This document shows, piece after piece, positions 8,750 through 35,455 of a DNA stretch of 64,000 nucleotides (its first letter is position 1; each line of letters opens with the position of its first letter). The notes under the pieces were generated by a model. It saw only the letters and a list, made by a program, of their open reading frames with translations. It did not search any database and had not been told where the DNA came from. The stretch is from Alphaproteobacteria bacterium. GTDB taxonomy: Bacteria; Pseudomonadota; Alphaproteobacteria; MPNO01. The translations under genes were made by a program, and so were the position numbers. The DNA is taken from positions 2,656,001 through 2,720,000 of the forward strand of contig OZ219866.1 of assembly GCA_964291675.2 (NCBI GenBank). The letters run 5' to 3'.

Positions 8750-8788
8750 CCCGGACGCGACGGCGCTTCCGACCAAGACTGACACGCT

Positions 8789-10153: not shown

Positions 10154-10159
10154 GGCGGC

Positions 10160-11090: not shown

Positions 11091-11106
11091 CGCCGGGGCC
11101 GGGACG

Positions 11107-12132: not shown

Positions 12133-12158
12133 GGCGCTCGCTCGCCCGGCATCCGCGT

Positions 12159-15760: not shown

Positions 15761-16329
15761 CACTGGTCGCCGTTGGGCGGCAGCAGGAGGTCGTCGAACG
15801 GCAGATCGTAGAGGACGATGAGGACGAGCGTCGCCAGCACGGCCGCCAGCGCCGCGCCCCGGGTCAATCGCTGCTCGACGACGGCGATCGCGCCCGCCAC
15901 CATGGCGATGCCGCCCAGCAGATAGCCGAAATACTTGTAAGGGATGGTGTCGCGCAGCTCGCGATAGCTGCCGACGGCGCCGCCGAGCGCGTTGATCGCG
16001 TCGACGACGAGCGGCCCCGTATGGCCCATCAAGGCGAGCCCGACGGCGATTGCGGCCGCGAAGCGGGCGGCGAATGTCAGGCTCTGCCTGTCGAACGCCG
16101 CCGCCTCGCGGCGGGGTTTCAGGATCGCGGAGACCGCCAGCAGCGCCGCCGCAACGAGCATGCCGATGGCGGCGACGGTGGGCGCCATGGCATCGCCGAT
16201 CACGGTGCGGCGCCGGAAGGTCTCGACGACGCCGCTCTCCACGTCGGCCGGGATCCAGACCCCCAGGGTCAGCAGGGCAAACGCGGCGACGGCCGCCGCG
16301 ATGCCCAGCGACCGGGGGTCGATACGCAT
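15760..16329 (-). CDS. TctB-like small membrane subunit
   Basis: About 5 TM segments, lies between the TctC and TctA genes, ends LFDDLLLP-like motif. Confidence 0.6.
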   Translation of the reverse strand: MRIDPRSLGIAAAVAAFALLTLGVWIPADVESGVVETFRRRTVIGDAMAPTVAAIGMLVAAALLAVSAILKPRREAAAFDRQSLTFAARFAAAIAVGLALMGHTGPLVVDAINALGGAVGSYRELRDTIPYKYFGYLLGGIAMVAGAIAVVEQRLTRGAALAAVLATLVLIVLYDLPFDDLLLPPNGDQ

Positions 16330-16357
16330 CCCGGTCCCGGCGGCCGGGCGGGTCCGC

Positions 16358-17308
16358 CTACTGGGTGGCCGCTATCAGCTTCCTGTTGTTCTCGATGCTG
16401 TCGGCGATGAGCTTTTCGAGCGCCGCGCCGGAGATCAGGCTGGGCCCGCCGAAGGCGCGCTGGACGAACTTCGCCGCCTTGGTGGACGTGTCGGTCAGCA
16501 CCGAGGCGACGGCGTCCGCCATCCCCTGGCGCGCGTCGGCCGGGATTCCCTTGGGGGCGACGATCAGGAACTTGACGCCCGCGTCGTAGGGGATGCCGAT
16601 CTCCTGCAGCGTGGGTATGTCGGGCGAGATCTTGAGCCGCGTCTTCTCCCCCGACACGAGGTTGACCAAGTCGCCCGCCTTGACGCCCTTGTTCTGGATG
16701 CCGGCCACCCAGCCGAGATCCACGTCGCCCGCGGTGATCGCGTTGAGGACCGCGCGGCCGCCGCGGAGCATGACGGTGTTGAACTCGATGCCGAACTTCT
16801 GCTCGGTCACGTAGGCGAGGTCGGCGAGCTTCGGGCCCATCGCGCCGAGCTTGAAGGTGGTGCCCGCCTTGGCCGCCGCGATCACGTCCTCGATCGACTT
16901 CCAGCCGCGCTCCGACCTGGCGACGAGCCCGATCTGGGTGCCCGCCGTCGTCGTGACGTAGGTGAAATCGTCCGCCGCATAGCCGACACTCTTCGCCGCG
17001 AGGACGTTGTAGGTGAAGGTCTGGGTGACCGCGATGCCGAAGGTCAGCCCGTCGTTCGGCTGCGTCTTCAGCTTGCGCGCCATCACCCCGCCGCCTTTGC
17101 CGGTGACGTTCTGCGGGATGATCTTCCACCCCCTGGTCTTCTCCAGCTCGGTCGCGATCAGCCGCGCCTGGGTGTCGGCGCCGCCCCCGGCGGCGAAGGC
17201 GATCATCAGGTTGACGGGACCGCTCGGCTGCCAGGCGGCGGCCGGTCCGGTGACGAAGGCCAGAGCGCCGGCCGCCGCCACCGCCGCACCGAATGACTTG
17301 AAGGACAT
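16358..17308 (-). CDS. tctC: Tripartite tricarboxylate transporter substrate-binding protein TctC (Bug family)
   Basis: Signal peptide; FAAGGGADTQAR, NVTGKGG, PNDGLT, PDIPTLQE, APKGIP. Confidence 0.9.
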   Translation of the reverse strand: MSFKSFGAAVAAAGALAFVTGPAAAWQPSGPVNLMIAFAAGGGADTQARLIATELEKTRGWKIIPQNVTGKGGGVMARKLKTQPNDGLTFGIAVTQTFTYNVLAAKSVGYAADDFTYVTTTAGTQIGLVARSERGWKSIEDVIAAAKAGTTFKLGAMGPKLADLAYVTEQKFGIEFNTVMLRGGRAVLNAITAGDVDLGWVAGIQNKGVKAGDLVNLVSGEKTRLKISPDIPTLQEIGIPYDAGVKFLIVAPKGIPADARQGMADAVASVLTDTSTKAAKFVQRAFGGPSLISGAALEKLIADSIENNRKLIAATQ

Positions 17309-18285: not shown

Positions 18286-18768
18286 CTACTCCTCCGTCGC
18301 CGCCAGCAGCACCCGGGCGCGGGCGTCCAGCCCGTCGAGCAGCGTCGCCAGCCGCTCGCGTTCGGCCGCGCCGAAATCCTCGAACAGGGCCTCTTCCCGC
18401 TCGCGCGAGCGCGCCGCGATCCTGCGATGCAGCGCCCTGCCTTCCCCGGTGAGGGTCAGGATCCGGCTCCGCCCGTCGTCCGGATGGCTGGCTTGCCGCA
18501 CCAGGCCGCGCGCAGTCAGGCGGCGGACGGCCCGGCTGACATTGCTCTTGTCGAGCACCGAGAACTCGGCGACGTCGCGCGCCATCACCGGCCCCAAGGC
18601 GGCCAGGATCGACAGCACGCGCCATTCCAGCACGCTGGTGCCGAACTCCCGCCGGTAGACCCGGGCGGACCACAGCGTCAGGCGGTTGGACAACACCGCC
18701 AGCCTGTAGGCGGTTACCCGGGTCAGGTCGTAGCCGGGATCGTCGCGCGGGTCGTTGCGCACCGCCAT
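18286..18768 (-). CDS. MarR family transcriptional regulator
   Basis: EWRVLSIL, LDKSNVSRAVRRL...GLV...DDGRSRILTLT. Confidence 0.92.
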   Translation of the reverse strand: MAVRNDPRDDPGYDLTRVTAYRLAVLSNRLTLWSARVYRREFGTSVLEWRVLSILAALGPVMARDVAEFSVLDKSNVSRAVRRLTARGLVRQASHPDDGRSRILTLTGEGRALHRRIAARSREREEALFEDFGAAERERLATLLDGLDARARVLLAATEE

Positions 18769-18772: not shown

Positions 18773-20305
18773 CTATTCGCGGTGTTCGGGAAACGCGTCG
18801 AGCAACGGCCCCGGCCGGGCGCGGACCATGTCCGTCAGCTCGCGGCGCAACCCGCGCCGTCCGTCGTCGTCGAACAAATTGTCCATCTCGTCCGGGTCGT
18901 CGGCGAGGTCGTACATCTCGCCGGCGCCGGAGAGCAAGTCGACGGTGAGCTTGGCGTCCGCCGTGCGAACCGTGCGGAGCCGCAGCTCCACCCCGGCGCG
19001 GCTCGGGTGCAGGTTCCATTCGCCGTAGGCGACGTCTCGGCCTTCCCCGCCCTCGATCAGCGGCTTGAGCGACCGGCTCTGGATGTCGTCCGGGCGGTCG
19101 ATCCCGGCGTAGTCGTAGAACGTCGCCGCGAGGTCCACGGTCGAGACCGGGTCGGCGACGACGCGCCCGGCGGGGACGCCCGGCCCGCGCACGATCAGCC
19201 CGACCCTGAGCAGCCCCTCATACGGCGTCGGCCCCTTGAGGTAGAGGCCGTGATCGCCCAGCAACTCGCCGTGGTCCGCGGTGAACACCGCGAGCGTATC
19301 GTCGGCGAGGCCGAGCGCGTCCAGCCGGTCCAGTATGCGGCCGACGCCGTGGTCGATGAACGCGATCTCGCCGAAATAGTTGGCTGTCATCTCGGCCAGC
19401 TGGCGGTCGGTCTGCGGCTCGATCCGGCTGTATTCGCGGCGCAGGGTGCGCGACCGCTCGGTGCGCGCCCGCGGCTCGTTCTCCAGCGCCGCCCGGTGCC
19501 ACCACGGCCGGCGGTCGAGGTCGCGCGCATGGGTCGGCGAAATGTCCACCTCGTCGGCGCCGTGCAGCCGGCTCCACGGCTCCGGGCAGTCGAACGGGTG
19601 GTGCGGGTCCGGGTAGGAGACCCAGAGGCAGAACGGCGCTTGCGGATCGTGACCGTCGAGAAAGGCCAGCGTGCGATCCGTCACCCAGGTCGTCGAATGC
19701 CAGAGTGCCGGAAGCCTCGAAAACCAGGTCTGCGCCGCCCCGGGCGGCGGCCCGGCATCCTCCGCCCACAGCGACCACGCCTCGCCGTCGCCGCCGCGGC
19801 TCCAGAACCAGCGCTCGAAATGCTGGCCGCGCGGCGGCTTCTCGCAGGGCAGCAGATCGTGCCAGTGGCCGAGGATCATCAGCTCGACCTCGTCGAAGCC
19901 CATATAGGGACCCGTCCAGTCGTCGGGAAAGCCGGCGGACTGCCCGCGGCTCTCCGGCGCGCCGTACGGGGTCGCCGCCGGATCCTCGCCGAAATGGCCC
20001 TTGCCGATGAACTTGCCGGCATAGCCGGCATCCGCGAGACGGCGCGCCCAGCCGCGCTCGGCGGTGCGCGCGTCGAGGTCGACGAAGTTGTCGTAGGCGC
20101 CGTGGGTCAGCGGCAGCATGCCGGTCAGGATCGACGCGCGCGCCGGCTGGCACACCAGGTTGGGCGTGATCGCCGCGGAGAACCGGGTTCCCGCCGCCGC
20201 CATCCGGTCGAGCCAGGGCGTGCGGATCCGCCGCCCCTCGAAGCCGAAACAGTCCCAGCGGTGCTGGTCCGAGGTGATGAGCAGGATGTTGGGCGGTCGC
20301 GGCAC
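18773..20305 (-). CDS. Cys-type sulfatase
   Basis: PNILLITSDQH, CQPARASILTG, GKGH, PDPHHPF, FTADHGE, GLYLKG, YEGLLRV. Confidence 0.92.
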   Translation of the reverse strand: MPRPPNILLITSDQHRWDCFGFEGRRIRTPWLDRMAAAGTRFSAAITPNLVCQPARASILTGMLPLTHGAYDNFVDLDARTAERGWARRLADAGYAGKFIGKGHFGEDPAATPYGAPESRGQSAGFPDDWTGPYMGFDEVELMILGHWHDLLPCEKPPRGQHFERWFWSRGGDGEAWSLWAEDAGPPPGAAQTWFSRLPALWHSTTWVTDRTLAFLDGHDPQAPFCLWVSYPDPHHPFDCPEPWSRLHGADEVDISPTHARDLDRRPWWHRAALENEPRARTERSRTLRREYSRIEPQTDRQLAEMTANYFGEIAFIDHGVGRILDRLDALGLADDTLAVFTADHGELLGDHGLYLKGPTPYEGLLRVGLIVRGPGVPAGRVVADPVSTVDLAATFYDYAGIDRPDDIQSRSLKPLIEGGEGRDVAYGEWNLHPSRAGVELRLRTVRTADAKLTVDLLSGAGEMYDLADDPDEMDNLFDDDGRRGLRRELTDMVRARPGPLLDAFPEHRE

Positions 20306-23804: not shown

Positions 23805-24452
23805 TCACCCGGCGTCGGCCTCGCCCGCCGCCGCTTCGTCCAGCGCGGCCGCGCGGCGATAGGCATCGCGCGTCTCCAGGCGCGACCAGTAGGTTTCGAA
23901 GGCCGGGCGCTTCTCGATCAGCTCGAATTGCAGGCCCCAGAAGACATGAGATCCGACATAGACATCGGCGGCGGAGAAGTCCTCTCCGGCGACGTAGCCC
24001 GCGCCCTCCACCGCGCGTTCCAGAGCCGCCATCACGGTCGGGAAATTGCCGTACCCCACCATCGCCTCCTTGTCCTCGGGCGGGGCCAGGCCGAAGGCGC
24101 GGTTGGTGACCGCCGCCTCCAGCGGACCGGCGGCGAAGAACAGCCAGCGGTAATAGGCGCCGCGCTCCCCGGCCGGCGGCGCGAGCCCGGCGTCGGGGAA
24201 GGCGTCCGCCAGATAGGCGCAGATCGCCGGAGCCTCGGTGACCGCGGTCGCGCCGTGGCGGATCGCCGGCACCTTGCCCATCGGGTTGATCGCCAAATAC
24301 GATTCCGACTTCATCGCCGGCTTGTATTCGAGGAGCTCGGTAAGGTAGGGCACCCCCGCCTCCTCCAGCATCCAGCGCGCGATCCGCCCGCGCGACATCG
24401 GGTTGGTGTACAGCACCAATTCTGCGTCTTGCGGTGCGTTTCCATCGAGCAA
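23805..24452 (-). CDS. Glutathione S-transferase family protein
   Basis: LYTNPMSRGRIARWMLEE, NPMGKVPAI, TEAPAICAYLAD, FSAADVY; TTG start after GGAGG. Confidence 0.92.
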   Translation of the reverse strand: MLDGNAPQDAELVLYTNPMSRGRIARWMLEEAGVPYLTELLEYKPAMKSESYLAINPMGKVPAIRHGATAVTEAPAICAYLADAFPDAGLAPPAGERGAYYRWLFFAAGPLEAAVTNRAFGLAPPEDKEAMVGYGNFPTVMAALERAVEGAGYVAGEDFSAADVYVGSHVFWGLQFELIEKRPAFETYWSRLETRDAYRRAAALDEAAAGEADAG

Positions 24453-24923
24453 GGTTCGTTCCTCCCCCGGTTCTCGATCGAATTCGCCGATTGCGTCGTG
24501 AGCCTGTCCGGCGGTTGCCGTCTCGGGACAACATGCCGAACCCCGGACTTGAGCTCGACATGGACTGTCCCCGATTTTTCCCGCACTCGACGCCGGCAAC
24601 GCCCGTCGGCCCATCGGTACAAGGATCTCGACGGCTGCGACCTTGAGCCGCTCCCGGCGGGCTTGACCGGCGCGCCTCCGGTCCCGACATGAGTATCGGG
24701 AGGCGGACGATGGCGATCCGGATACCCGAGCGCACGGCATCGGATGTTTGCGATGCATAAGTCAAATTTCGCTTTGCCGCACTGCCTCGCGGTTTTGTTT
24801 TCTTTGTCACGACCGCGCCCGTGATGGTAATTTCCCGGCCTTTTCCCGCGCATTCGCGTCCGATCGCTTCCCGCGGGAATTGCGGCGTCCGTGCCTTGCG
24901 ACCGATCGGGATGCGAGGAGGCC

Positions 24924-26948
24924 ATGCCTGACACGACGGTGACGACCCAGCCGCTGAGCCTGCCGGAAGAGCTCGTCCTGATGCTGCTCAACGAGCAGAA
25001 CGGCTATTTCCATCAGGTTCCGGGCTGGGACCTGAACTGCACCGTTGTCGGCGCGGTGCTCGCGGAACTCTCCCTCCAGGCGCGCATCGACACGGATCTG
25101 GATTCGCTGCATCTGCTGGACGCGACGGAAACCGGCGATCCCGCTCTCGATCCGGTTCTGAAGCAGATCGCCGACGAGCCGGATCGACGAAACGCCCAGT
25201 ACTGGATCGAACGCCTCGCCGGGCGGGCGGACGCGATCGTCGACCGGACCCTGGACCGCCTGGTCGAGCTGAAGATCCTGGAGCACCATGACGGCGATTT
25301 CTGGACGCTGGCGACCGCGAGGTGGTACGAGGATCTGCGCGGCGCCTCCCAGGAAGGCACGGTCGGCCAGTTCATCAAGACCCGCGTGGTCAAGGCGCTC
25401 TTCACCGACGAGATTCCCGATCCGAGAGACGTCATCGTCATCTGCCTCGTCGACGCGTGCGACGTCTTTCGCATCATGTTCGAGCTCGACGAGGAGACCG
25501 AAGAGCGCATCGCCTTCATCCGCCAGATGGACCTGATCGGCCGGTCCATAGCGGCGGCGGTGGCGCAGAACATCGCCACCCCGATGCTCAGGCGTTCCAC
25601 CCTCACCAAGAAGATACCCGTCATCGCCCTGCGCCGGCTGCTGCCGAGCCCGCATGTTCGCAGCGGCAACATTCCCGCGGTCTTGGCGGATCTCGCGAGG
25701 GAATACGGCCCGGCGTTCGAGGTCCGTCTGCCGTTCGCGAAACCGATGACCTTCCTCGCCGGGCCCGAGACCAACCGCTGGGTGCACCGGCACGGGCGGA
25801 TGCACCTGAAGGCCGGGGGCTATTTCGCCGAGTTCGAGAAGGTCTACGGCGCGCACGGCGTAATGCCGTCGCTCGACGGCGCCGATCATTTCCGGCTTCG
25901 CAAGGCGATGGGGCCGGCCCAGTCGCGCGGCAGGCTTTCCGGCCGGCTGGACGAGGTCTACCGGCTCGCCCGCGAATTCATGGCGGGCTGGACGGTGGGG
26001 AAAACCTTCCCGGTGCGCGACTGCCGGCGCATGATCAACGCGCAGCTCTCGCCGCTCTTCCTGAGCGTCGATTCGCAGGACATCATCGACGACCTGATGG
26101 ACTTCAAGGAGCGGGCGCTGACGACGCATATCATGAACGCCTTGCCGAGGTTCATGCTGAACACGCCCGGGATGAAGCGCCGCGCCAAAGCCGTCGACAC
26201 GCTGCTGGAACGGATCCAGAGCGTCCACACGCCGGTGCAGCGCGCCGGTTGCCCGCGCGACCTGGCCGACGACTGGCTGAGCCTGCACGCGAGCGATCCG
26301 CAGCTGGTGCCGGAGGCCAATTTGCGTTTCGCCCTGTCCGCGGCGCTGGTGGCCAGCGTCTATCTCGGCGACGCGCTCAGCTTCGCGGTCTACGCGCTGG
26401 CGTCCCAGCCCGCGCTCGGCAAGAGAATCCAGGAAGAAGCCGACGCCCTGTTCGGGAACCGGGACCCGGACGGCGAGGACTTCAACCAGTCGTCGATGGA
26501 GGTCACGCACCGCTTTCTGATGGAGTGCCTCAGGATGTATCCGATCGTCCCCGTGTCGATGCGGGACGTGATGAACTCCTTCGTGCTCGAAGGCTACGAG
26601 CTGCCGGTGGGGGCAAGGGTCAGTATCGCCCAGACGGCCTCGCACTACATGGAAGACGTCTTTCCCGACCCCTTCTCGTTCGACATCGACCGCTATCTGC
26701 CGCCCCGCGAAGAGCACCGCGGCCCGGGCTACGCGCCCTACGGGCTGGGCACGCACAGATGCCTGGGCTCGCGCTGGATGGACCTGCAGCTCGCGGTCAA
26801 CGTGCTGATGATCGCGCATTACTTCACCCTCGAGGTCACCCCCGCGCGCTACGCCGATGCGCTGCCGTTCAGCCCGCTGCCGTCGATGAAGCCGACCGAG
26901 AAGCTGAATTTCCTCGTCGCCGGGCAGAGGCGCGAGCTGCCGGTCTGA
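24924..26948 (+). CDS. GPP34 (GOLPH3/Vps74-like) domain fused to a cytochrome P450
   Basis: N-terminal about 215 aa LSLPEELVLMLL...GAVLAELSLQARID...TGDPALD...LDRLV (GPP34 pattern); C-terminal P450 with ECLR (ExxR), FDIDRY and YGLGTHRCLG; one uninterrupted ORF with GAGGAGG RBS. Confidence 0.85.
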   Translation: MPDTTVTTQPLSLPEELVLMLLNEQNGYFHQVPGWDLNCTVVGAVLAELSLQARIDTDLDSLHLLDATETGDPALDPVLKQIADEPDRRNAQYWIERLAGRADAIVDRTLDRLVELKILEHHDGDFWTLATARWYEDLRGASQEGTVGQFIKTRVVKALFTDEIPDPRDVIVICLVDACDVFRIMFELDEETEERIAFIRQMDLIGRSIAAAVAQNIATPMLRRSTLTKKIPVIALRRLLPSPHVRSGNIPAVLADLAREYGPAFEVRLPFAKPMTFLAGPETNRWVHRHGRMHLKAGGYFAEFEKVYGAHGVMPSLDGADHFRLRKAMGPAQSRGRLSGRLDEVYRLAREFMAGWTVGKTFPVRDCRRMINAQLSPLFLSVDSQDIIDDLMDFKERALTTHIMNALPRFMLNTPGMKRRAKAVDTLLERIQSVHTPVQRAGCPRDLADDWLSLHASDPQLVPEANLRFALSAALVASVYLGDALSFAVYALASQPALGKRIQEEADALFGNRDPDGEDFNQSSMEVTHRFLMECLRMYPIVPVSMRDVMNSFVLEGYELPVGARVSIAQTASHYMEDVFPDPFSFDIDRYLPPREEHRGPGYAPYGLGTHRCLGSRWMDLQLAVNVLMIAHYFTLEVTPARYADALPFSPLPSMKPTEKLNFLVAGQRRELPV

Positions 26949-26984
26949 CGCGGCGCACCCGCCCGGCCGTGGGCGGGACGGCGC

Positions 26985-28343
26985 TCACGCCCTCCTGAAG
27001 CGCCAGCCGTACATCATGCGCCCGTAGAAGTTGAACCACCTGCGCGCCTCAGCGTCCTCGAACGGATAGTCGGCGCCGATCTGCCGCGCCGTCGCCAGGC
27101 CCGAGACGAAACAGGTCTCCTGGCTGTTGACCAGCGTGTGGGCGCCGCAATGCCAGCTTCGCCGCCGGCCCTGAACGAAGCGGAAGAGGTGGATCAGCAG
27201 GGCCACGTGACGCACGTCGTGCACGATGTGCTGGAACCACAAGCGCTTCACGATCTTGCTCTCGTCGATGCGGCTGACCGGGTTGTAGGTCACCAGGCAG
27301 GGCTTGTCGGACCGGTTCGCCCAGGGCTGCTGGTTGTGCATGATATAGGTGATTTCGTAGTTGTCCGGCCTGGCGCCGTATTGCTCGATGTGGTTGCTCC
27401 GGCTGGCGAGCGGCTTGACCTCATTGTCCGGCAGGACGGTGGCGTCGGAATGGACCACCGTGTGGTTGTGGAGCTCGCTCTCGTAGCGGATCGCCGACAG
27501 CAGCCAGCCCTCCAGCAGGGTCGGATCGTCCAGCATCATCAGCGTCTGGTTGGCGTTGCACGCGAAGACCACGTCGTCGAACGTCTCCGTCCCGCCGCGC
27601 TCGTCCTCCACGACCACCCCGGACGCGCGCCGGTAGACCTTGCGCACCGGCCGGCCGAGATAGATCCGGTCCCGGAAGTCCGCCGACATCGCCTCGTAAA
27701 TGCGCCGCGTGCCCCGCTCCCAGGTCTGCATCGGCGTCGCGGTCTCGATGTCGAAGAACTCCAGATACCGGGCGAACAGCGATGCCGGCATGTCGAACAC
27801 GTTGCTGGCCATCAGGAAGTTGACGAACATGGGCTTCAGCACCTGGTAGCGGAAATCGCCGGAGAACCTGCCGAGATTGAGCAGCATCCCCATGCTGACG
27901 TAGTTGAACGGGTTGAGGGCATTCAGCGCCCTGGACCGCGTCCGGTTGAGCCGGCCGAACCGCTTGAGCCGCTTCAGGAGCTTCTGGAATCTCTCGATTT
28001 CCGGCTGCAGCCGCCGCCTGATGTCGGAGTCGAAATCGTGCGCGTAGACGCCGCCGCGATACCTCACGCTGTAGCTGAACCTTGTGTCGATCAGCTCGAT
28101 TCCGTGCTGGCGCATGAACAGGACGATGTGGTGGTAGACGGAGGGAATGCAGGCGGTGACGGAGATGTCGAAGGGTATCGAGCTGCCGTCGTCCTGCTTC
28201 ATGTCGGCGGTGACCGCGTTGCCGCCGAGCCGGGGCTCTGCCTCGAACAGCCGGAAATCGAAGCGGTCGGGATGCCGGCCGAGCGCCCAGGCCACGCCCA
28301 GACCCGAGACCCCGCCGCCGATTATGGCGATCCGTCTCGGCAT
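26985..28343 (-). CDS. FAD-dependent oxidoreductase (COG2907-like NAD/FAD-binding, amine-oxidase fold)
   Basis: IAIIGGGVSGL, FEAEPRLGGNA, VHSD, LVTYNP, QGRRRSWHCGAH...SGLATA. Confidence 0.8.
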   Translation of the reverse strand: MPRRIAIIGGGVSGLGVAWALGRHPDRFDFRLFEAEPRLGGNAVTADMKQDDGSSIPFDISVTACIPSVYHHIVLFMRQHGIELIDTRFSYSVRYRGGVYAHDFDSDIRRRLQPEIERFQKLLKRLKRFGRLNRTRSRALNALNPFNYVSMGMLLNLGRFSGDFRYQVLKPMFVNFLMASNVFDMPASLFARYLEFFDIETATPMQTWERGTRRIYEAMSADFRDRIYLGRPVRKVYRRASGVVVEDERGGTETFDDVVFACNANQTLMMLDDPTLLEGWLLSAIRYESELHNHTVVHSDATVLPDNEVKPLASRSNHIEQYGARPDNYEITYIMHNQQPWANRSDKPCLVTYNPVSRIDESKIVKRLWFQHIVHDVRHVALLIHLFRFVQGRRRSWHCGAHTLVNSQETCFVSGLATARQIGADYPFEDAEARRWFNFYGRMMYGWRFRRA

Positions 28344-28362
28344 CGCCGGGCCCGGCCCGGCT

Positions 28363-29184
28363 CTAGCGCACCCGCTTCAGCGCCGTCCGGGTGAAGTCGC
28401 CGAGGTCGAGGTCGGTGCCGAACTCGTAATCCGACCAGTTCAGCACGGTGCTCTTGCCCGTGAGATGGTTGCTCATGGTGATCTTGCTCGCGCGCCAGAA
28501 CCGGTCGAGATATCTCTTGTAATCCTCGACCGCCATGGTCTTGAGATGTGCGCCCCGGCGGTCGAAGAACTGGATCCGGATGCTGCGAAGCTCCTTCTTG
28601 TCGAGCCAGACCAGTTGCCGGGAATATCCCGAATCCTTGCTGAGCGGGATGCGCTCCAGGACGCTGCACCGGAGGTCGCCGCAGGCCTCGTCGCGCAGCA
28701 GGCGGTGCTTGAATTTCTCGACCTCGACGGCGCCCATGTCCTCGTAGGAGAACTCGCTGCCCATGAAGGAGCCGGACTGCTTCGACGAGCTGATGCGCTT
28801 GACCCGTTTCAGGGCGGGAAGATAGAGCCACTGCTCGTCCGGCCTGTCCTTGTGGGCGTGAACCAGGAACCCGGTCCCCCTGACATCGCGCGGGCGGTCG
28901 AACACGAAGATGGTGCGGTCGCCGTCGCCCTCGACCTCGATGGTCTTCAGGCGGATCTGACGGCGGCTTTCCTGCCCCCGCTTGGTGCGCAACACCATGG
29001 TGAGGTTGGCGGTGAAATTGCCGAAACCCTTCTGGCGCTGGCGGGATTCGGTGGCGAGCTTGCGGCCGGCTTCCTCGGCGCTGCTGTCCGCCCGGACGGA
29101 TGCCGGCTCGGCCGTCCAGGCGAAGACGGCGGCCAGGATGCCGCACCAGAGCGGCATCGGGTGGGGGAGCGAGGCGCGAGTCAC
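28363..29184 (-). CDS. Outer-membrane lipoprotein-sorting (LolA-like) periplasmic protein
   Basis: Signal peptide; FDRPRDVRGTGFL, QWLYLPALKRVKRI, SFMGSEFSYED. Confidence 0.88.
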   Translation of the reverse strand: MTRASLPHPMPLWCGILAAVFAWTAEPASVRADSSAEEAGRKLATESRQRQKGFGNFTANLTMVLRTKRGQESRRQIRLKTIEVEGDGDRTIFVFDRPRDVRGTGFLVHAHKDRPDEQWLYLPALKRVKRISSSKQSGSFMGSEFSYEDMGAVEVEKFKHRLLRDEACGDLRCSVLERIPLSKDSGYSRQLVWLDKKELRSIRIQFFDRRGAHLKTMAVEDYKRYLDRFWRASKITMSNHLTGKSTVLNWSDYEFGTDLDLGDFTRTALKRVR

Positions 29185-29281
29185 CGGTTCCTCCTGTCGG
29201 TCGCCTTCACCGCAAGCTCTTCGCGCATGCTAGCACGAATCCCGACCGGCCCGGCCTGCGGCATCCTGTCATACGCCCTGT

Positions 29282-31609
29282 CTACTCGGCCTCGCGCCGC
29301 AGCCGTTCCCTGATCTGCGCGCCGGTCTCCCGGGCGCCGTCGAGCGCCATCAGGAGCGGCGGCAGAAGCAGGAAATCCGCCAGCAATGCGACGATGACGG
29401 TTATGCCCACCAGCAGGCCGAGCGCCTGGTTGGTCGCCATCCCCGAGGTGCCGAACACCATGAAGCCGAGCGCGAACACGACGGTGGTCGCGAACAGCGC
29501 CCTGCCCACCGTGCGAAAGGCGGATTGCACCGATTCGGAAGGCAACAGCCCGCGCTTCCTCCCCTCGACGTATTTGGTCATGAAGTGGATCGTGTCGTCG
29601 ACGATGATGCCGAAGGCGATCGCCGTGACCACCGAGGCCGCGACACCGACCTCGCCCACCGCATACCCCCACAGGCCCATCGCCATGGCGGCGGGGACGA
29701 AATTGGGGATCAGGGTGATCAGGCCGAGACGCACGCTCCTGAACATGAACAGCAGCAGCAGCGAGACGATGGCCATGGCGGTGACGGTGCCGATCAGCAT
29801 GCCCTCGATGTTGCGCTGGATCGAACGCGCGCCGACCACGGCCACGCCGCTGGCCCGGGTCGCCATCTCGGGGGCGTTCTGCCGGAACCAGTCCTGCGCG
29901 CGCTCGTCGAGCGCGATCTTCTCGCTGGTCGACAGGCTCTTGAGCACCACCGTCAGCCGGGTCGACGACCGGTCCACGTCGATCAGGTTGTTGAGGTCGC
30001 GGCCGACCGGCAAAGAGAGCTCGTAGAGCAGCAGATACTGCGCGGCGAGATCGGAGCTCTCCGGAATCCTGTAGAACGCCGGATCGTCGCCATGCAGGTT
30101 CTTGTTCAGGCGCTTCAGGATGTCGGCGATGCCGAACACGTGGGCGATTTCCGGCTGCGAGCGGAACCACTCGGACAGCGCATCGACCTTGCCGAGATAC
30201 CCGACATCGGTGATGCCGCCCTCCCGCCCGGCGCCGAGCGAGTATTCGTAGGTCTCCACGCCGGTAAAATTCTTGCTGATGAAATCGGTGGACCGGCGGA
30301 ACTCGTAGCTCTCGTCGAGCAGCTCCAGCCAGTTCTCCTTGAGCTCGATCCGCGAGATGCCGGCGATCAGCACCACCACCAGCACGCTGAAGGAGATCAG
30401 CAGCGTCGTGTGGCGGGAGACCACGAACCGCCCCAGAAGGTCGAAGAAATCGGATCCGCCCGCGCGCGGCTTCCGGGCGCGCATCGGCAGGATCGACAGG
30501 AGCACCGGCAGCAGGGTCGCCGAATAGACGAAGGCGCAGAGCGCGCCGAACGCCACCATGTTGCCCATCACCTTGAACGGCGGCATCTCCGCAAAGTTCA
30601 GACTGAGGAAGCCGATCGCCGTGGTCAGCGAAGTCAGGAAGACGGGCCACAGATTGACGCGCAGCGAATGGACGACCGCCTGCCGGCGGTCCATGCCCTC
30701 GCGCAAGCCCGCGAACATGCCCTCGATCACGTGGACGGAATGCGCGACGGTGACCGCCATCAGGACGAACATCGCCGCCGCGCTCTCGCCGAACAGCTTC
30801 ATCCCGGTCCAGCCGACGAACCCCAGCGCCGACAGGATGACCGCGACCATCATCGCGACGATCGCCACGGTCCCCCAGATCGAGCGCAGCAGGATCACGG
30901 CGACGACCAGCATCGTCGCGAGGGCGATGGGGGCGAGCACCGCCATCTCGCCGTCGATGGCATCGCGCATCGCCCGGTTGAGCACGATCTCGCCGGTCAG
31001 GTGGTAGTCGACATTCGAGAACTTCTCGCGCGCCTCGACGGCGGTGTCGTAGAGGAAGTCGGTGACCTCGAGCTTTCCCTGCTCGCGGTTCTCGGGAAGC
31101 GCGACGCTGACCACCAGCCCGGCGACGCGGCCGTCGCGCGAGACGAAGCGCCCGGCGACCTCCCGGGTGGCGAGAGCGATGCGCTCGATTCGTTCGATGT
31201 CCTGGTCGCTGAGCGAGCCGGCCTCGTCGATGAGCGGTTCGACGACCAGCTCGTCCTCGCGGCCTTCGCTGTGGGTGTAGTTGGCGATCGAATCGACGCG
31301 GGTGACGTAGGGCGTCCGCCACAGCCGCTCGGTCAGGTCCTCGATGGCGACCAGGGTCTCCCGCGTGAAGATGGTGCCGCTCTTCGGCGCCACCGCGACC
31401 AGCGCGCCGTCGGAGAGCGCGTAGGTGTCCTCCAGCCGCTCCAGTGCGACGATATGCGGGTCGTCCTTGCCGAAGTGATTCCGCACGTCGACATCGACCG
31501 CGACGATCCGCCCGGCCCCCGCCGCGAGGCCGGCCATGAAGAGCAGGGAGAGCAGCATGGTCAGCCATCGCCGACCCATCACGAGCGCGACAAACGATTC
31601 CAGATTCAT
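29282..31609 (-). CDS. MMPL / RND-family lipid transporter
   Basis: Two repeats of TM bundle plus periplasmic loop; LTSLTTAIGFLSL, GIIVDDTIHF, LLLPPLL. Confidence 0.9.
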   Translation of the reverse strand: MNLESFVALVMGRRWLTMLLSLLFMAGLAAGAGRIVAVDVDVRNHFGKDDPHIVALERLEDTYALSDGALVAVAPKSGTIFTRETLVAIEDLTERLWRTPYVTRVDSIANYTHSEGREDELVVEPLIDEAGSLSDQDIERIERIALATREVAGRFVSRDGRVAGLVVSVALPENREQGKLEVTDFLYDTAVEAREKFSNVDYHLTGEIVLNRAMRDAIDGEMAVLAPIALATMLVVAVILLRSIWGTVAIVAMMVAVILSALGFVGWTGMKLFGESAAAMFVLMAVTVAHSVHVIEGMFAGLREGMDRRQAVVHSLRVNLWPVFLTSLTTAIGFLSLNFAEMPPFKVMGNMVAFGALCAFVYSATLLPVLLSILPMRARKPRAGGSDFFDLLGRFVVSRHTTLLISFSVLVVVLIAGISRIELKENWLELLDESYEFRRSTDFISKNFTGVETYEYSLGAGREGGITDVGYLGKVDALSEWFRSQPEIAHVFGIADILKRLNKNLHGDDPAFYRIPESSDLAAQYLLLYELSLPVGRDLNNLIDVDRSSTRLTVVLKSLSTSEKIALDERAQDWFRQNAPEMATRASGVAVVGARSIQRNIEGMLIGTVTAMAIVSLLLLFMFRSVRLGLITLIPNFVPAAMAMGLWGYAVGEVGVAASVVTAIAFGIIVDDTIHFMTKYVEGRKRGLLPSESVQSAFRTVGRALFATTVVFALGFMVFGTSGMATNQALGLLVGITVIVALLADFLLLPPLLMALDGARETGAQIRERLRREAE

Positions 31610-31856
31610 GCGGAATTACCGGCCGGTGAGCAGGTCCCGAGCATAGCATCTCGCAGTCGCTCCGACACCGGCATTCCCCACTCCACCCGCGACACCGTGT
31701 CTCTCGCCGTCCGCTGGCCGACACCGACCGCCATCGGCTATGATGCCGGACGAGAGCCTCGCTCGCCTTGGCCCGCTGGGCACCGTCACGATGCGGAGGG
31801 CGGTTCGATGCCCCGACCACAGATGCCGTCGCGCGATCCGCGCTGACCGAATCCCC

Positions 31857-32951
31857 GTGGAACCGCCTCGACAGGGGCGCGGATCCCCGCGGGACGCGAC
31901 CGGGGATCGCCGCGCGGGCGACGGCAACGCCGTTCTCTACCCGTTTCCCGAGGGGTGGTATTTCGTCGCCGACCGCCGCGCGCTGGCGAAGCGGAATCCG
32001 CTTCAGAGGCAGTGGCTCGGGGAGGATATCGTCGTCTGGTCCGACGACGGGGGAGCGGTCTGCGCGGCCCGCGCGGTGTGCCCCCATCTCGGCGCCTCCC
32101 TGGGTCCTGCGGCCGGCGGGCGGGTGCGCGACGGTCGCCTCGTGTGCCCGTTTCACGGCTTCGCCTACGACGCCCGCGGCGCGTGCGTCGCCACGCCCTT
32201 CGGCCCGCCGCCGCCTGCGGCGAAGCTGGAGGTGTTCGAGACGCGGGTGATCTCCGGCCTGGTCTTCGCCTGGTGGGGCATCGACGGGCGTCCGCCGCGA
32301 TGGCGCCTTCCCGAGGACCCGCCGGAAGGCGACGGGTGGGGCGGGAAGGAGATCCGCACCATCCGGTTTCCCGGCCACCCGCAGGAGACCACGGAGAACT
32401 CGGTGGACCTCGGCCATCTGCGCTACGTGCACGGCTACGACGCGGTCAAGCCGGTCGGCGAGACCGCGGTGGAGGGCGCGTATCTCCTGACCCGCTTCGA
32501 TTTCAGGCGCCGCCGCCGGATCGCCGGGTTCACCGACCTGATCTACGACATCTCGGCGACCGCCCATATCCATGGGCTGGGCTATTCGTTCGTCGAGGTC
32601 GTCGAGCGCACGATCGGCATGCACTCCCGCCTCTGGGTGCTGGCCACACCGGTCGACGGCCGGCTCATCGACATGGTCCTGGTCTCGCAGCTGCGCGAGC
32701 TGCGCGAGCCCAGGCGCCCGATCTCCGGTCTCGGTTTCCTGCCGGTGAAGCTGCGCACCCGGCTGATGAACAGGATTCTGATGTCCTCGCAGGTAAGGGA
32801 CGTTCGACAGGACGTGACGATCTGGGAAAACAAGCGATACCGGCCGCGGCCGAGCCTGTCCCGTTCCGACGGCGAGATCGGCAGGTACCGGCGCTATTGC
32901 AGGCAGTTCTATCCGTGCGGCCGCGCCGGCGGCGTGCGGGGAGAAGATTGA
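31857..32951 (+). CDS. Rieske non-heme iron oxygenase, Neverland/DAF-36/KshA/PrnD-like
   Basis: FPEGWY, CPHLGA...CPFHG Rieske ligands, ENSVDLGHLRYVH iron site, QDVTIWENKRY...DGEIGRYRRYCRQFY; start uncertain. Confidence 0.85.
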   Translation: MEPPRQGRGSPRDATGDRRAGDGNAVLYPFPEGWYFVADRRALAKRNPLQRQWLGEDIVVWSDDGGAVCAARAVCPHLGASLGPAAGGRVRDGRLVCPFHGFAYDARGACVATPFGPPPPAAKLEVFETRVISGLVFAWWGIDGRPPRWRLPEDPPEGDGWGGKEIRTIRFPGHPQETTENSVDLGHLRYVHGYDAVKPVGETAVEGAYLLTRFDFRRRRRIAGFTDLIYDISATAHIHGLGYSFVEVVERTIGMHSRLWVLATPVDGRLIDMVLVSQLRELREPRRPISGLGFLPVKLRTRLMNRILMSSQVRDVRQDVTIWENKRYRPRPSLSRSDGEIGRYRRYCRQFYPCGRAGGVRGED

Positions 32952-33014
32952 GGGGAAGCCGCGCGGGCGGCACGACGATTTCTATGCTCGGCGCATTCGA
33001 AGGAGATCTCGGCC

Positions 33015-34172
33015 ATGGGTGAAATCACGCTCGGCGTGGAAGAGGAGTTGATGATCGTCGATCCGCGCACGCGCGACGTGGTCGCCGACCCCGACGAGGG
33101 GATCATGGTCCGGGCCGTCGAGCTGGCCGGCGAGCACAAGGTGGTCAGCGAGTTCATGCGTTCGCAGATCGAAACCAATTCCCGGGTGTGCGGCTCGGTC
33201 GCCGAGGTCGAACAGAGCCTCAGGGAGACGCGGCGCTGCGCCATCGACGCCACGCGCGAGCACGGCGCCCGGGTGATCGCGTCCTCGACCCATCCCTGGG
33301 CCCGGTGGCAGGAACAGCAGGTGACGCAGAAGGAGCGCTACCAGCGCGCCGAGATCGATTTCCAGGACAGCGTGCGGCAGTTCTTCATCGGCGGGATGCA
33401 CATCCATGCCGGGTTCGACGGCGACGACCGCAGGATCGAGGTGATGTACGCGCTGCGCGGCTATCTGGCCCTGTTCCTCGTGCTCTCCTGCTCGTCGCCC
33501 TTCCATGGCGGCCGGCTGACCGGGCTCAAATCCTACCGCCAGATGGCGATCGGCGCGCTGCCGCGCACCGGGACGCCGCCGGCGATGCGCACGCGGTCCG
33601 ACTACGACGCCGTGGTGGCGCGTTACAAGTCGATCGAGGCGATCGAGGACGGCAGCGAGCTGCGCTGGGACATCCGCCCGTCGGCGAGCTACGCCACGAT
33701 CGAGCTCAGGATCTGCGACATCTGCCCCAGGATCGAGGAGGCCGTGGCCATCGCCGCCCTCTATGCCTGCCTGATCCGCAACCTGAACGCGCGGCTGGAT
33801 GCCGGAGAGCGGCTGGCGGAGATTCCGCCGGAATCGGTCGAAGAGGGGCGCTGGATCGCGCAGCGCTACGGTACCTTCGCCTTCCTGCCCTACCCGGACG
33901 GGCGAGGCGGCCGGGTCGATGTTGCCGATTTCGCGGGCGAGCTCGTGGCCGCGCTCGGCGACGATGCGCGGGCGCTCGGCTGCGAGTCGGCGCTCGCGCG
34001 GGTCGAACGAATCGTTGCTCTCGGCAACAGCGCCGACCGGCAGGAGGACGTCTACCGGCAGGCGATGCTGGACGGGGCGGACAGCGCGGAGGCGCTGCGC
34101 GCGGTGGTCGATTCGGTGATCGCCGAGACCGAGCGCGGAGTCGCGTCCGCCGACGCAGCGGCGTCCGGGTGA
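33015..34172 (+). CDS. Carboxylate-amine ligase YbdK / glutamate-cysteine ligase family 2
   Basis: TLGVEEE, QIET, STHP, GMHIHAG, SSPF, WDIRPS, TIELRICD. Confidence 0.9.
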   Translation: MGEITLGVEEELMIVDPRTRDVVADPDEGIMVRAVELAGEHKVVSEFMRSQIETNSRVCGSVAEVEQSLRETRRCAIDATREHGARVIASSTHPWARWQEQQVTQKERYQRAEIDFQDSVRQFFIGGMHIHAGFDGDDRRIEVMYALRGYLALFLVLSCSSPFHGGRLTGLKSYRQMAIGALPRTGTPPAMRTRSDYDAVVARYKSIEAIEDGSELRWDIRPSASYATIELRICDICPRIEEAVAIAALYACLIRNLNARLDAGERLAEIPPESVEEGRWIAQRYGTFAFLPYPDGRGGRVDVADFAGELVAALGDDARALGCESALARVERIVALGNSADRQEDVYRQAMLDGADSAEALRAVVDSVIAETERGVASADAAASG

Positions 34173-34205
34173 CGGCCCAATGCGGGATCGAGTGCGGACA
34201 AGCCC

Positions 34206-35063
34206 ATGAACCAAGACATGAACGGAAAAACCTGCCTGATCACCGGCGCCAACGCGGGAATCGGAAAGGCGGCGGCGCTCGGCCTCGCGCGGCTGGGCGC
34301 GACGGTGGTGCTGCTCTGCCGAAGCGAGGCCCGCGGCCGCGCGGCCGTGGCGGAGATCGAACGCCGCAGCGGCAGCCGCGCGCTCCATCTGCTGGTCGCC
34401 GACCTCGCCTCGCAGCCCGAGATCCGCCGCGTGGCGGCGGAGTACCTAGAACGCTTCGAGCGTCTCGACGTGCTGGTCAACAACGCGGCCGTGCTCGCCT
34501 GGCAGGAGCGCCGGCTCAGCGAGGACGGGCTGGAGCTCACCTTCGCTGTCAACCACCTGGCGCCGTTCCTGCTGACCGGGCTGTTGCTCGACCGGCTCAA
34601 GGCGAGCGCGCCTTCCCGCATCGTCACCGTGGCCTCGGGCGCGCACCGGAGAGCCCCGCTCGATTTCGACGACTTGCAGAACGAGCGCGACTACTCGCCG
34701 TTCGACGCCTATTGCCGGTCCAAGCTGGCCAATGTGTACTTCACCTACGAGCTCGCGCGCCGCCTCGAAGGGACCGGGGTGACGGCCAACTGCCTGCACC
34801 CGGGCGTGGTCTCGACGGCCCTGTTCCGCGACATGAGATGGTGGCAGCGGATCGCCATCTGGCTCGGCCGCCCGTTCCTCCTGACGCCGGCGCGCGGCGC
34901 CGACACGGCGGTCTATCTCGCCGCCTCGGGCGATGTCGCCGGCGTCACGGGAAAGTATTTCGAGAAGCGCGAGGCGGTCCGGTCCTCGCCCGTCTCCTAC
35001 GATGCCGAGCACGCGCGGCGCCTGTGGGAGGCGAGCGAGGCGTTGACGGAGGCCCGGGACTAG
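34206..35063 (+). CDS. Short-chain dehydrogenase, retinol-dehydrogenase-like subfamily
   Basis: TGANAGIG, DLAS, LVNNAA, AVNHLAPFLLT, YCRSK (YxxxK), LHPGVV. Confidence 0.92.
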   Translation: MNQDMNGKTCLITGANAGIGKAAALGLARLGATVVLLCRSEARGRAAVAEIERRSGSRALHLLVADLASQPEIRRVAAEYLERFERLDVLVNNAAVLAWQERRLSEDGLELTFAVNHLAPFLLTGLLLDRLKASAPSRIVTVASGAHRRAPLDFDDLQNERDYSPFDAYCRSKLANVYFTYELARRLEGTGVTANCLHPGVVSTALFRDMRWWQRIAIWLGRPFLLTPARGADTAVYLAASGDVAGVTGKYFEKREAVRSSPVSYDAEHARRLWEASEALTEARD

Positions 35064-35455
35064 CCTGCACCCGTCCGCGAGCCGGTTCGCCGCGCGAGCC
35101 ACCATGCGACCCAAACCGGCAGGCTCAGCGCGGCCGCCGCGACGGCGATGGCGACGGGTCCGAGCAGGCCGGCGAAGAGCCCGGCCGCCACGGTGAGCGC
35201 GCCGAGCCCGACACCCGCCGCCCAGGCGGATCTCCGGTAGCCCCGCCGCCACAGCGCGCGGCAGGCGAGCGCGAGCGGCAGGCCGCAGGGCGCAACGACG
35301 GCGAGGCTCCCCGCCGACATGAGCAACGTGGCCAGCCACAAGCCCGGCTCGGCCGGTGGCCCGAAGCGGAGCAGGGCGGAGGCGACGATGCCGGCCGGCA
35401 GCCACAGCAGGGCGAGCGGCCAGAACCCGTATCGCCCGGCGATCCCCGGTCTCAC
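35060..35455 (-). CDS. Small hypothetical membrane protein (about 4 TM)
   Basis: Hydrophobic ORF directly downstream of dps. Confidence 0.55.
   Translation of the reverse strand: MRPGIAGRYGFWPLALLWLPAGIVASALLRFGPPAEPGLWLATLLMSAGSLAVVAPCGLPLALACRALWRRGYRRSAWAAGVGLGALTVAAGLFAGLLGPVAIAVAAAALSLPVWVAWWLARRTGSRTGAG

Follow-up and report, generated by a model that had tools for sequence, protein, structure and literature searches.

A GPP34-cytochrome P450 fusion and its conserved neighbours in sponge-associated bacteria: a gene set with a predicted role in sterol tailoring and transport

Proteins that join a GPP34 domain to a cytochrome P450 have been described as GPP34_L, a monophyletic group of 656 members found in sponge symbionts only and expressed in hospite, and have been proposed to act as secreted effectors that bind phosphatidylinositol 4-phosphate (PI4P) and block phagosome maturation (Ferreira et al. 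2025, Microbiome 13:4, PMC11706023). In the portions of that paper considered here, flanking genes are examined for the short GPP34 form only, and the terms 'MMPL' and 'amine oxidase' are absent from its main text, as are 'sterol' and 'MMPL' from one supplement. We analysed a fusion of this kind, together with its surroundings, in a stretch of 64,000 nucleotides from an alphaproteobacterial genome (contig OZ219866.1, positions 2,656,001 to 2,720,000; hereafter the window). On balance we consider it probable that the interval 24.9-33.0 kb of the window is one copy of a horizontally shared, sponge-associated gene set, predicted to tailor sterols and move them across the envelope, the sterols being likely obtained from the host.

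Several characterised systems resemble parts of this set. BstABC carries out sterol transport in Methylococcus, and HpnN transports hopanoids; KshA is a 3-ketosteroid 9alpha-hydroxylase, and Neverland/DAF-36 and SdmA are other steroid Rieske enzymes. Sterol methyltransferases (SMTs) from sponge symbionts have been shown to add alkyl groups in vitro to the side chains of sterols (Brown et al. 2023, PMC10070321), and clusters of ERG24, CYP51 and LSS move horizontally and are enriched in sponge symbionts (Kelly et al. 2022, PMC9531527). UfaD of Rhodobacter sphaeroides desaturates the methyl-branched product of the S-adenosylmethionine (SAM) methylase UfaM, and its partner UfaO has a DUF1365 domain (Lemke et al. 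2020, PMC7380195), while TOL_3187 of Thalassolituus oleivorans combines MMPL and LolA-like parts in one protein and is induced 42-fold on C28 alkane (Gregson et al. 2018, PMC6304351). Each of these papers is cited here for the portions that bear on the comparison.

The genome holding the window (G000; the G numbers are our handles for genomes) is a 4.8 Mb assembly in two contigs, 93.7% complete; the window itself is chromosomal and of high GC, about 0.70. Profile scans of its open reading frames (ORFs) with Pfam and NCBIfam recovered, in their proposed positions, all eight genes named by an earlier interpretation of the letters alone (the sequence-only reading):

23805-24758, minus strand: glutathione S-transferase (GST); Pfam GST_N_2, E 1.5e-13
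24924-26948, plus strand: GPP34-cytochrome P450 fusion, 674 aa in one frame; Pfam GPP34, E 2.7e-30, and p450, E 4.1e-34
26985-28343, minus strand: FAD enzyme of the amine-oxidase/phytoene-desaturase superfamily, UfaD-like; Pfam Amino_oxidase, E 1.9e-17
28363-29184, minus strand: LolA_like periplasmic protein with a signal-peptide-like N-terminus; PF17131, E 1.1e-60
29282-31609, minus strand: MMPL/RND-superfamily inner-membrane transporter; PF03176, E 6.9e-40
31740-32951, plus strand: Rieske non-heme iron oxygenase with a KshA-type catalytic domain; Rieske, E 2.3e-19, and KshA_C, E 1.6e-22
33015-34172, plus strand: YbdK-family carboxylate-amine ligase (GCS2); Pfam GCS2, E 3.2e-46; TIGR02050, 259.3 bits, over the cut-off
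34206-35063, plus strand: short-chain dehydrogenase (SDR); adh_short, E 1.9e-34

The coding frame of each of the eight is picked out by a third-position GC of 0.85-0.93. The MMPL, LolA-like and FAD genes are read in one direction, MMPL being first, with 97 and then 19 nt between successive genes; this operon and the fusion are convergent, and their stop codons lie 36 nt apart. The Rieske gene probably starts downstream of 31740. A promoter and terminator scan of 24400-35400 returned one promoter-like and three terminator-like sites, which did not exceed shuffled sequence, so that the operon ends were not placed.

The principal evidence comes from the company that the fusion keeps elsewhere. 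A scan with one genome per species found 214 relatives, from which 77 distinct loci were kept (59-91% identity to the fusion); with the window these make 78 loci, compared over 10 kb on either side of the fusion, and several of them are short contigs, so that the neighbourhood counts are lower bounds. Searching the 77 loci with the window proteins (tblastn, E <= 1e-8, at least 50% coverage) recovered the Rieske protein in 53, the FAD enzyme in 37, MMPL in 20 and the LolA-like protein in 13. When every ORF of 110 aa or more in the 78 loci was clustered blind and the representatives were searched with Pfam, the Rieske enzyme formed a cluster present in 54 loci, the FAD enzyme one in 38 and a methyltransferase with Methyltransf_11 and Sterol_MT_C domains (a putative SMT) one in 36. 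Transporters of three sorts emerged: the window-type MMPL (21/78), an MMPL of about 830 aa with Sterol-sensing and Patched matches in Chloroflexota and Acidimicrobiia (31/78), and an AcrB-type pump in Gemmatimonadota, Latescibacterota and Opitutales (10/78). The LolA-like cluster stands beside the fusion in 12 of the 78 loci, whose labels are Alpha- or Gammaproteobacteria, Poriferihabitaceae or no phylum at all; none is labelled as a monoderm phylum.

The three pump types are mutually exclusive, and some RND pump lies near the fusion in 62 of the 78 loci. The MMPL bearing a sterol-sensing domain (SSD) takes the place of the window MMPL in monoderm phyla, and three non-orthologous RND types thus fill one slot. 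The loci span about ten phyla, the genome titles naming Alpha- and Gammaproteobacteria, Dehalococcoidia/SAR202, Acidimicrobiia, Gemmatimonadota, Latescibacterota, Opitutales, Bacteriovoracales, Rhodothermaceae, 'Ca. Poriferihabitaceae' and 'Ca. Spongiisocius'. Within the genus of the window bacterium the same genes occur together in differing order: G009 has the window order, G004 and G011 have MMPL-LolA, fusion-Rieske and FAD as successive blocks, G007 has FAD and Rieske followed at some distance by the fusion, and G005 and G010 have fusion-MMPL. Three unrelated pumps in one slot, and retention of the set through rearrangement, argue for function rather than chance. Hence the linkage of the fusion, FAD enzyme, LolA-like protein, MMPL and Rieske oxygenase, which the sequence-only reading had proposed, persists both within the genus and across phyla, and is not a chance juxtaposition.

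The same reading had described a contiguous block of seven genes with a divergent GST on its left, and of these eight only the five just named stand. In the 77 related loci tblastn found GCS2 in none, SDR in five (27-32% identity, weak) and GST in one, the nearest relative, so that these three genes are tied to the others by adjacency only. On this evidence we class GCS2, SDR and GST as bystanders outside the conserved set, and the 'conjugation' branch of the earlier proposal, which does not travel with the set, falls away. The GST domain begins at residue 114 of its ORF, and the true start is therefore probably further inside. Three other clusters were examined and dropped. One, 'o120' (13 loci), lies on the opposite strand over the SMT gene and was discarded as a shadow ORF; an ABC-ATPase cluster (15 loci) proved to be a mixture, in Acidimicrobiia an Opp/Dpp peptide importer, and is a lineage neighbour rather than core; a GNAT cluster (9 loci) is confined to the same lineage and is likewise not core.

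That the substrate is sterol-like, as had been suggested, agrees with the putative SMT in 36 of 78 loci, the SSD-bearing MMPL in 31, and the position of the fusion in three congeners. The fusion-linked methyltransferases score 55.9-63.3 bits on Sterol_MT_C (cut-off 21.7), and the pump of the monoderm carriers scores 50.3-55.2 bits on the Sterol-sensing model (cut-off 22.3) besides its Patched matches. In G008, G010 and G006 the fusion lies 2-10 kb from an SMT, a cyclase at the level of oxidosqualene cyclase (OSC) and a second P450; on TIGR03463, where hopene cyclases score about 250 bits, the cyclases near the fusion reach 713-747 bits, and the P450 adjoining the OSC in G008 is 24% identical to the P450 of the fusion. 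Of the 12 genomes of the genus, the same 10 contain both an SMT and the fusion, whole or split, and in the other two, G001 and G003, the searches found neither gene. Outside the genus set, 50 of the 76 carrier genomes, long contigs being preferred, were searched for SMT and OSC: an SMT over the cut-off is present in 44, and the cyclases are OSC-level in 10, hopene-cyclase-level only in 11 and neither in 29, completeness not being given for these 50. At the level of comparative genomics we regard the sterol link as real, as judged from these domain assignments.

In G000 itself the single cyclase is a hopene cyclase (TIGR01507, 751.8 bits, cut-off 431), and a profile search of the genome found no oxidosqualene cyclase, the OSC model reaching 263.8 bits against a cut-off of 851. 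Its single SMT is at C2:2373053 (59.5 bits on Sterol_MT_C, cut-off 21.7) and is 88% identical to the fusion-adjacent SMT of G009. An SMT and a hopene cyclase without OSC favour modification over de novo synthesis, as the sequence-only reading had it. G000 and 40 of the 50 carriers showed no OSC-level cyclase, which makes the host, or neighbours, the most likely source of the sterol, and the suggestion of a host-derived sterol in a symbiont also fits the sponge names in the titles of related metagenome-assembled genomes (MAGs) and the SMT in 44 of 50.

Two of the described systems come closest in this respect. Like the enzymes and clusters of PMC10070321 and PMC9531527, in the portions considered, the set involves Sterol_MT_C methyltransferases in uncultured sponge bacteria and sterol genes that are mobile across phyla, and in G008 and G010 the fusion stands beside an SMT-OSC-P450 cluster of such a kind. 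The main text of PMC10070321, however, names sdmA/sdmB, without P450, Rieske or GPP34-P450, and the core described in PMC9531527 is ERG24-CYP51-LSS without GPP34-P450, whereas G000 is without OSC. An alternative is that the set tailors and places in the envelope the bacterium's own sterols, as an accessory to de novo synthesis, with the pump engaged in BstA- or HpnN-like delivery to the outer membrane. The closeness of the fusion to SMT-OSC-P450 clusters in G008, G010 and G006, the OSC-level cyclase in 10 of 50 fusion-bearing genomes and the enrichment and horizontal movement of sterol clusters in sponge symbionts (PMC9531527, in the part cited) would all be expected under this account. We nevertheless hold it to be unlikely, as G000, G004 and G009 have the set without any OSC-level match, like 40 of the 50 carriers, and for the window the sterol would need an outside source. 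ERG24 was also not found in G000, a family search whose control matched in no genome and which is not evidence of absence.

Some further copies of the fusion and the SMT are described here for the record. The nearest relative, G009, carries two fusion copies (L023 and L024; 91% and 89% identity), one in the window layout and the other with an adjacent SMT; G000 has only the window-layout copy of the two, and its SMT is elsewhere. In G006 (C17:208148-210446, L020) two ORFs, one for GPP34 and one for the P450, stand in place of a single fusion frame; the query ranges that they match overlap (17-342 and 311-685), and they adjoin an OSC fragment (168 bits) and an SMT. Decay of the copy or a fault of assembly may account for the split. 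The SMT of G000 lies in C2:2363000-2382999 (L103), at L103:10048-11079 on the minus strand, among two 2OG-Fe(II) oxygenases, a 3Beta_HSD/epimerase-family gene and a luciferase-like monooxygenase, with a GST, a VanA-type Rieske oxygenase and a creatininase as further neighbours. These could be additional lipid-tailoring genes or mere neighbours.

The window fusion was compared with its counterparts in five genomes of other phyla, labelled Dehalococcoidia, Acidimicrobiia, Palauibacter, Latescibacteria and Opitutales, and shows 67-76% identity to them; the flavin enzyme shows 71-94% over 37 relatives. In the same five genomes the identity of release factor 1 (RF1) is 48-56%, and that of histidyl-tRNA synthetase (HisRS), found in four of them, 33-42%. 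As the set proteins are far more alike across phyla than the housekeeping proteins, we conclude from these comparisons that the gene set moves horizontally. FastTree trees of 74 fusions and 54 Rieske proteins, both unrooted and with SH-like support only, show the same deep split between a diderm group and a Chloroflexota group in which Acidimicrobiia are nested, with short branches between phyla. GC is 0.64-0.68 over 24-31 kb and 0.70-0.71 in the flanks.

The fusion protein is a single ORF in which GPP34 (PF05719, 106.4 bits, cut-off 29.1) covers residues 24-225 and the P450 domain (PF00067, 118.6 bits, cut-off 22.8) residues 256-652. The protein collection contains an identical protein of 674 aa (P0001); like its nearest relatives, it bears a label of Defluviicoccus or Rhodospirillales MAGs. 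The window fusion has the same two domains in the same order as GPP34_L, and relatives 59-91% identical bear the titles of sponge MAGs from many phyla; by this architecture we assign it to the published group, from which the present picture differs in that the long form is here tied to a Rieske oxygenase, a flavin enzyme, an SMT and RND pumps. The ExxR motif and the heme Cys loop of the P450 domain are kept in at least 95% of 74 fusion relatives. An AlphaFold2 model (mean pLDDT 88.4, pTM 0.83) has a beta-hairpin (119-129) with a disordered loop (133-144) after it, and a pTM of 0.83 in a two-domain protein suggests that the domains are packed in a fixed manner. No N-terminal signal peptide or membrane span is predicted.

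The pocket by which human GOLPH3 holds PI4P consists of W81, R90, R171 and R174, of which R90 binds PI4P. In a phmmer alignment to 3kn1/9qpq that is itself weak (E 0.03), W81 aligns to W35 of the window fusion, a position that is Trp in 40 of 56 fusion members, and R90 to V42, a position that is Arg in 0 of 56; R171 and R174 fall outside this alignment. These observations bear on the published reading, in which the GPP34 domain makes the fusion a secreted effector that binds host PI4P and blocks phagosome maturation, and the neighbouring genes are unrelated to it. Membership of Pfam GPP34, the conserved Trp, and the restriction of GPP34_L to sponge symbionts with expression in hospite, as reported in the cited portion of PMC11706023, are in keeping with an effector; a protein without signal peptide, with the catalytic motifs of a heme enzyme intact, confidently modelled as two packed domains, lacking Arg at the aligned R90 position and standing beside pumps and lipid enzymes in 62 of 78 loci is not what that reading predicts, and we judge it very improbable. 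Stand-alone GPP34 genes, 35-45% identical to the N-terminal domain of the fusion, occur in one to several copies per genome across the genus, and also in two genomes that have no fusion.

The best PDB match of the P450 domain is CYP51 (E 5.5e-18), a weak and partial match over the C-terminal 174 residues only; with about 20% identity in the fold match and no CYP51 model among the NCBIfam hits, orthology to CYP51 was rejected. When the whole model was submitted to Foldseek, all 500 matches listed were P450s (CYP184A1, CYP51-ferredoxin and BM3 among them; TM 0.74-0.83), none of which stood out from the rest, and they left no place in the list for the GPP34 domain; the top match of the P450 domain includes CYP184A1 with bound oleic acid. 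In the alignment of the fusion family, position 480 of the I-helix is Y in 37 of 56 members and D or E in 13, and position 481 is L in 31 and T in 14. The I-helix of the window fusion accordingly reads A-S-V-Y-L-G in place of the A-G-x-D/E-T that distant members (13-14/56) retain, and the window branch has therefore lost the canonical acid-alcohol pair of the proton relay. A conserved small ORF of ferredoxin size (55-135 aa) was sought within 7 kb on either side of the fusion in the 78 loci and no redox partner was found; the best cluster of small ORFs (8 loci) overlies the 3' end of the fusion and is probably a shadow frame. Since the acid-alcohol pair is lost and the set has no redox partner, the P450 may, in the bolder reading given below, employ peroxide-type or substrate-assisted chemistry rather than ordinary hydroxylation.

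The flavin enzyme is 71-94% identical to the window copy over 37 relatives. Its best PDB match is LkcE (E 6.5e-25, 90.9 bits), and a search of the ESM Atlas returned generic 'FAD-dependent oxidoreductase' clusters only. Compared with the positional UfaD ortholog in G037 it is 29% identical over 431 aa (E 4e-49, 161 bits). The G037 gene heads an Amino_oxidase-DUF1365-CMAS-MFS-DUF3833 operon beside an ECF sigma factor and a ChrR-like gene, a layout that is that of the R. sphaeroides ufaD-ufaO operon, and it is on synteny alone that its orthology to UfaD is based. The likeness to UfaM-UfaD-UfaO lies in the pairing of a SAM methylase of the CFA/SMT superfamily with an FAD desaturase from the superfamily of the window flavin enzyme. 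The differences are that neither the window nor the conserved clusters hold a DUF1365 (UfaO) partner, and that the methyltransferase of the present set has a sterol-type C-terminal domain, its predicted substrate being a sterol side chain and not a phospholipid acyl chain.

It is from this quarter that the case for a different membrane lipid arises, whether a hopanoid, a methyl-branched or furan fatty acid, a carotenoid or a host terpenoid, which the relative of 'sterol' methyltransferases would then methylate. We regard this as distinctly unlikely. UfaD, the closest studied-type relative of the flavin enzyme, is a fatty-acyl desaturase (PMC7380195, in the portion cited), G000 has a hopene cyclase, the window MMPL gives only partial HAE3- and HpnN-like matches, the linked methyltransferases form a divergent branch, the MMPL and LolA-like protein of Thalassolituus is induced on a C28 alkane (PMC6304351, likewise in part), and oleic acid is bound to CYP184A1 in the top fold match of the P450. 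Opposed to these are the scores of the linked methyltransferases, which exceed the Sterol_MT_C cut-off, the Sterol-sensing and Patched matches in the pump of monoderm carriers, the fusion adjoining OSC in some genomes, and the lack of a DUF1365 partner among the conserved clusters.

The Rieske protein scores 69.5 bits on PF00355 and 81.1 bits on PF19298 (cut-off 23.3), with the same outcome in three relatives, and at the level of domains it may be classed as KshA-type. Both CPH..CPFHG and ENSVDxxHxxxxH are kept in at least 95% of 54 Rieske sequences. The window copy, which is the sole ortholog within G000, sits with its nearest relative on a long branch (0.43) of the FastTree tree. Its best PDB match is KshA (4qdc, E 8.3e-22), weak and partial over residues 66-232, and it matched no KshA equivalog model of NCBIfam. 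Identity as SdmA was rejected, NF052579.1 giving 31.4 bits against a cut-off of 600 and covering the Rieske domain only, and the L026-type relative had no SdmA match at E <= 1e-6. Window-type proteins thus share with KshA a Rieske domain, a KshA_C-type catalytic domain and the iron ligands, but no KshB-type reductase is conserved near the fusion loci. A single sequence of 675 aa (P0271) joins MMPL, Rieske and KshA_C and is 55% identical to the Rieske enzyme of the set. It came from a search for longer forms with the Rieske protein, the length range of which leaves out GPP34-Rieske forms (about 590 aa), and is a fusion of pump and oxygenase or else an artefact of gene calling; one sequence is too little for it to be counted among the fusions.

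A further account, to which we give almost no credence, is that host sterols are degraded for carbon by a KshA-like hydroxylase of the rings, a dehydrogenase and a P450 that attacks the side chain. P450s do start the degradation of the cholesterol side chain in actinobacteria, and KshA is the best PDB match of the Rieske protein. That match is nevertheless limited to the first 170 residues and accompanied by no equivalog model, a methyltransferase that builds side chains travels with the set, and no beta-oxidation, Hsa-type or Mce-type gene is present among the conserved clusters.

The window MMPL has about 12 hydrophobic spans and scores 137.4 bits on Pfam MMPL (cut-off 20.5). As HAE3 (173.6 bits against 351.9) or as HpnN (TIGR03480, 113 bits against 751.85; equivalog, 40.9 against 1100) it remains below the cut-offs, and there was no match to BstA at E <= 1e-5; its solved matches, MmpL4/5 and HpnN, are weak. 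The LolA-like protein matches PDB 3bk5 (E 4.9e-80), an uncharacterised 'outer membrane lipoprotein-sorting protein'. The set parallels BstABC and HpnN in that an RND inner-membrane protein and a periplasmic carrier would serve a polycyclic triterpenoid and are encoded near genes for the synthesis or modification of that lipid; it differs from BstABC in that the periplasmic partner is LolA_like and not a BstB-type binding protein, and from BstA in that the SSD-bearing MMPL of monoderm carriers scores 31.6 bits against a cut-off of 1400. TOL_3187 contains the same two families as the window MMPL and LolA-like protein, acting as one unit, a comparison made by family only and from the cited part of PMC6304351, where the cargo differs, being C28 alkane with a proposed role in uptake-related transport. 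MMPL paralogs (41-54% identity) and LolA-like paralogs (54-58%) occur in G000 at C2:2814965-2818026 and near 1164688, 1690397 and 1705519, with one MMPL and LolA pair adjacent, and this pump type is a multi-copy family in the genome.

HpnN, BstA, MmpL3 and AcrB all act outward. By analogy these RND precedents favour outward transport, and an AcrB-type pump can occupy the slot; the sequence-only reading had spoken of 'uptake', which on these grounds is not retained. The induction of TOL_3187 on an alkane that the cell takes up, as described in the cited part of its report, would point the other way.

Taken as a sequence of steps, the favoured explanation, that the set tailors and moves a sterol likely obtained from the host, would run as follows. 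The cytoplasmic GPP34 domain would take over the task of the membrane anchor of eukaryote-type P450s and keep the P450 docked on the inner face of the bacterial membrane itself, in which the sterol resides. Oxidation or desaturation of the sterol may then fall to the P450 and the Rieske enzyme, and the UfaD-like flavin enzyme, by analogy with UfaD, could create or restore the C=C bond needed for alkylation by the SMT, which in G000 is encoded 283 kb away. Finally the MMPL pump, with the LolA-like carrier in diderms, would shuttle substrate or product between the inner membrane and the outer envelope or the outside.

Several points weigh against this explanation. The substrates of all enzymes of the set are predicted from their sequences; the nearest studied-type relative of the flavin enzyme works on fatty acyl chains and not on sterols; and neither a ferredoxin nor a reductase gene is conserved in the set. 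The SMT of G000 is not adjacent to the window fusion. The fusion-linked methyltransferases, which are putative SMTs by domain and are set beside the enzymes of Brown et al. by family only, form a divergent branch with 49% identity to the OSC-linked SMT of G008 and score lower on Sterol_MT_C (about 57-67 bits) than OSC-linked ones (about 76-90). The window MMPL is below the HpnN and HAE3 cut-offs, gives no BstA match, and has no Sterol-sensing match in Pfam at E <= 0.001. Incompleteness of MAGs, G000 among them, weakens the lack of OSC; in the 10 of 50 carriers that have an OSC the sterol could be their own, and the hopene cyclase of G000 leaves room for a hopanoid substrate. Furthermore, many of the 77 loci are kin and hence are not independent.

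The surroundings of the set are those of an ordinary chromosome, with cobalamin genes, two sulfatases, TctABC, a TPP enzyme, Dps, Znu-type ABC systems, ClpB, RF1, HisRS and SecA, and a tRNA scan of the window found none, hence no tRNA-linked island border. The cobalamin run occupies 381-12234 (CobW, CobO/BtuR, CobQ, CobD, CobS and a CobT-type phosphoribosyltransferase). The sulfatase genes, at 12730-14172 and 18773-20305, both on the minus strand, bracket TctA/TctC of a tripartite tricarboxylate transporter at 14174-17308 and a MarR regulator at 18286-18768; sulfatase-rich loci are a hallmark of sponge symbionts.

By the titles of their MAGs the closest relatives of the window bacterium are sponge symbionts, and 14 of the 22 sequencing runs that hold part of the stretch are labelled sponge metagenome. 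At a likeness of at least 85%, all 30 bins are covered by four runs, namely two labelled sponge metagenome, a library of a sponge metatranscriptome, and the best holder. In two sponge metagenome runs and the best holder the summed contig depth is about 2,450-4,950 at 27193-27946, in the flavin gene, where it peaks, against tens to hundreds over most of the stretch; many community members with near-identical copies are the likely cause, which fits the conservation of the flavin gene across taxa. The RNA-library run X22 has short near-identical contigs at 31001-31237 and 33131-33369, but these are Logan contigs from a library that possibly includes DNA, and transcription is not demonstrated by them.

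Parts of this picture are already published, namely the fusion in 2025, bacterial SMTs in 2023 and sterol clusters of sponge symbionts in 2022, so that the word 'undescribed', which the sequence-only reading had applied to the locus, holds for the module and not for the fusion (PMC11706023) or for sponge-symbiont SMTs and sterol clusters (PMC9531527, PMC10070321). What is new is the conserved tie of the fusion with the Rieske oxygenase, the UfaD-like enzyme, the SMT branch and the RND pumps, together with the functional reading; neither the tie nor the reading turned up in the literature searched, from which subscription journals were largely left out. A bolder form of that reading is possible, although we think it doubtful: the GPP34-P450, rather than acting as an effector at host membranes, would form the membrane-docked centre of a mobile island for remodelling the side chains of sterols and exporting what results, and by means of it bacteria of many phyla that make no sterols, equipped with a divergent SMT, a UfaD-like desaturase and a KshA-like oxygenase, would rework the sterols of their host.

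The fusion may offer a natural example of a lipid-binding domain substituting for the membrane anchor of a P450, and sterol chemistry at the bacterial membrane provides an alternative to phagosome evasion, the sole published function for GPP34-P450 proteins. The oldest chemical evidence of animals is taken from sponge sterols whose side chains are unusual, and the bacterial contribution to them is disputed (PMC10070321, in the part cited). A set that joins a putative SMT, three oxidoreductases and a predicted lipid pump would supply concrete enzymes for this dispute and, if the proposed function is true, part of the odd 'sponge' sterol repertoire, including the precursors of fossil biomarkers, would be bacterial handiwork.

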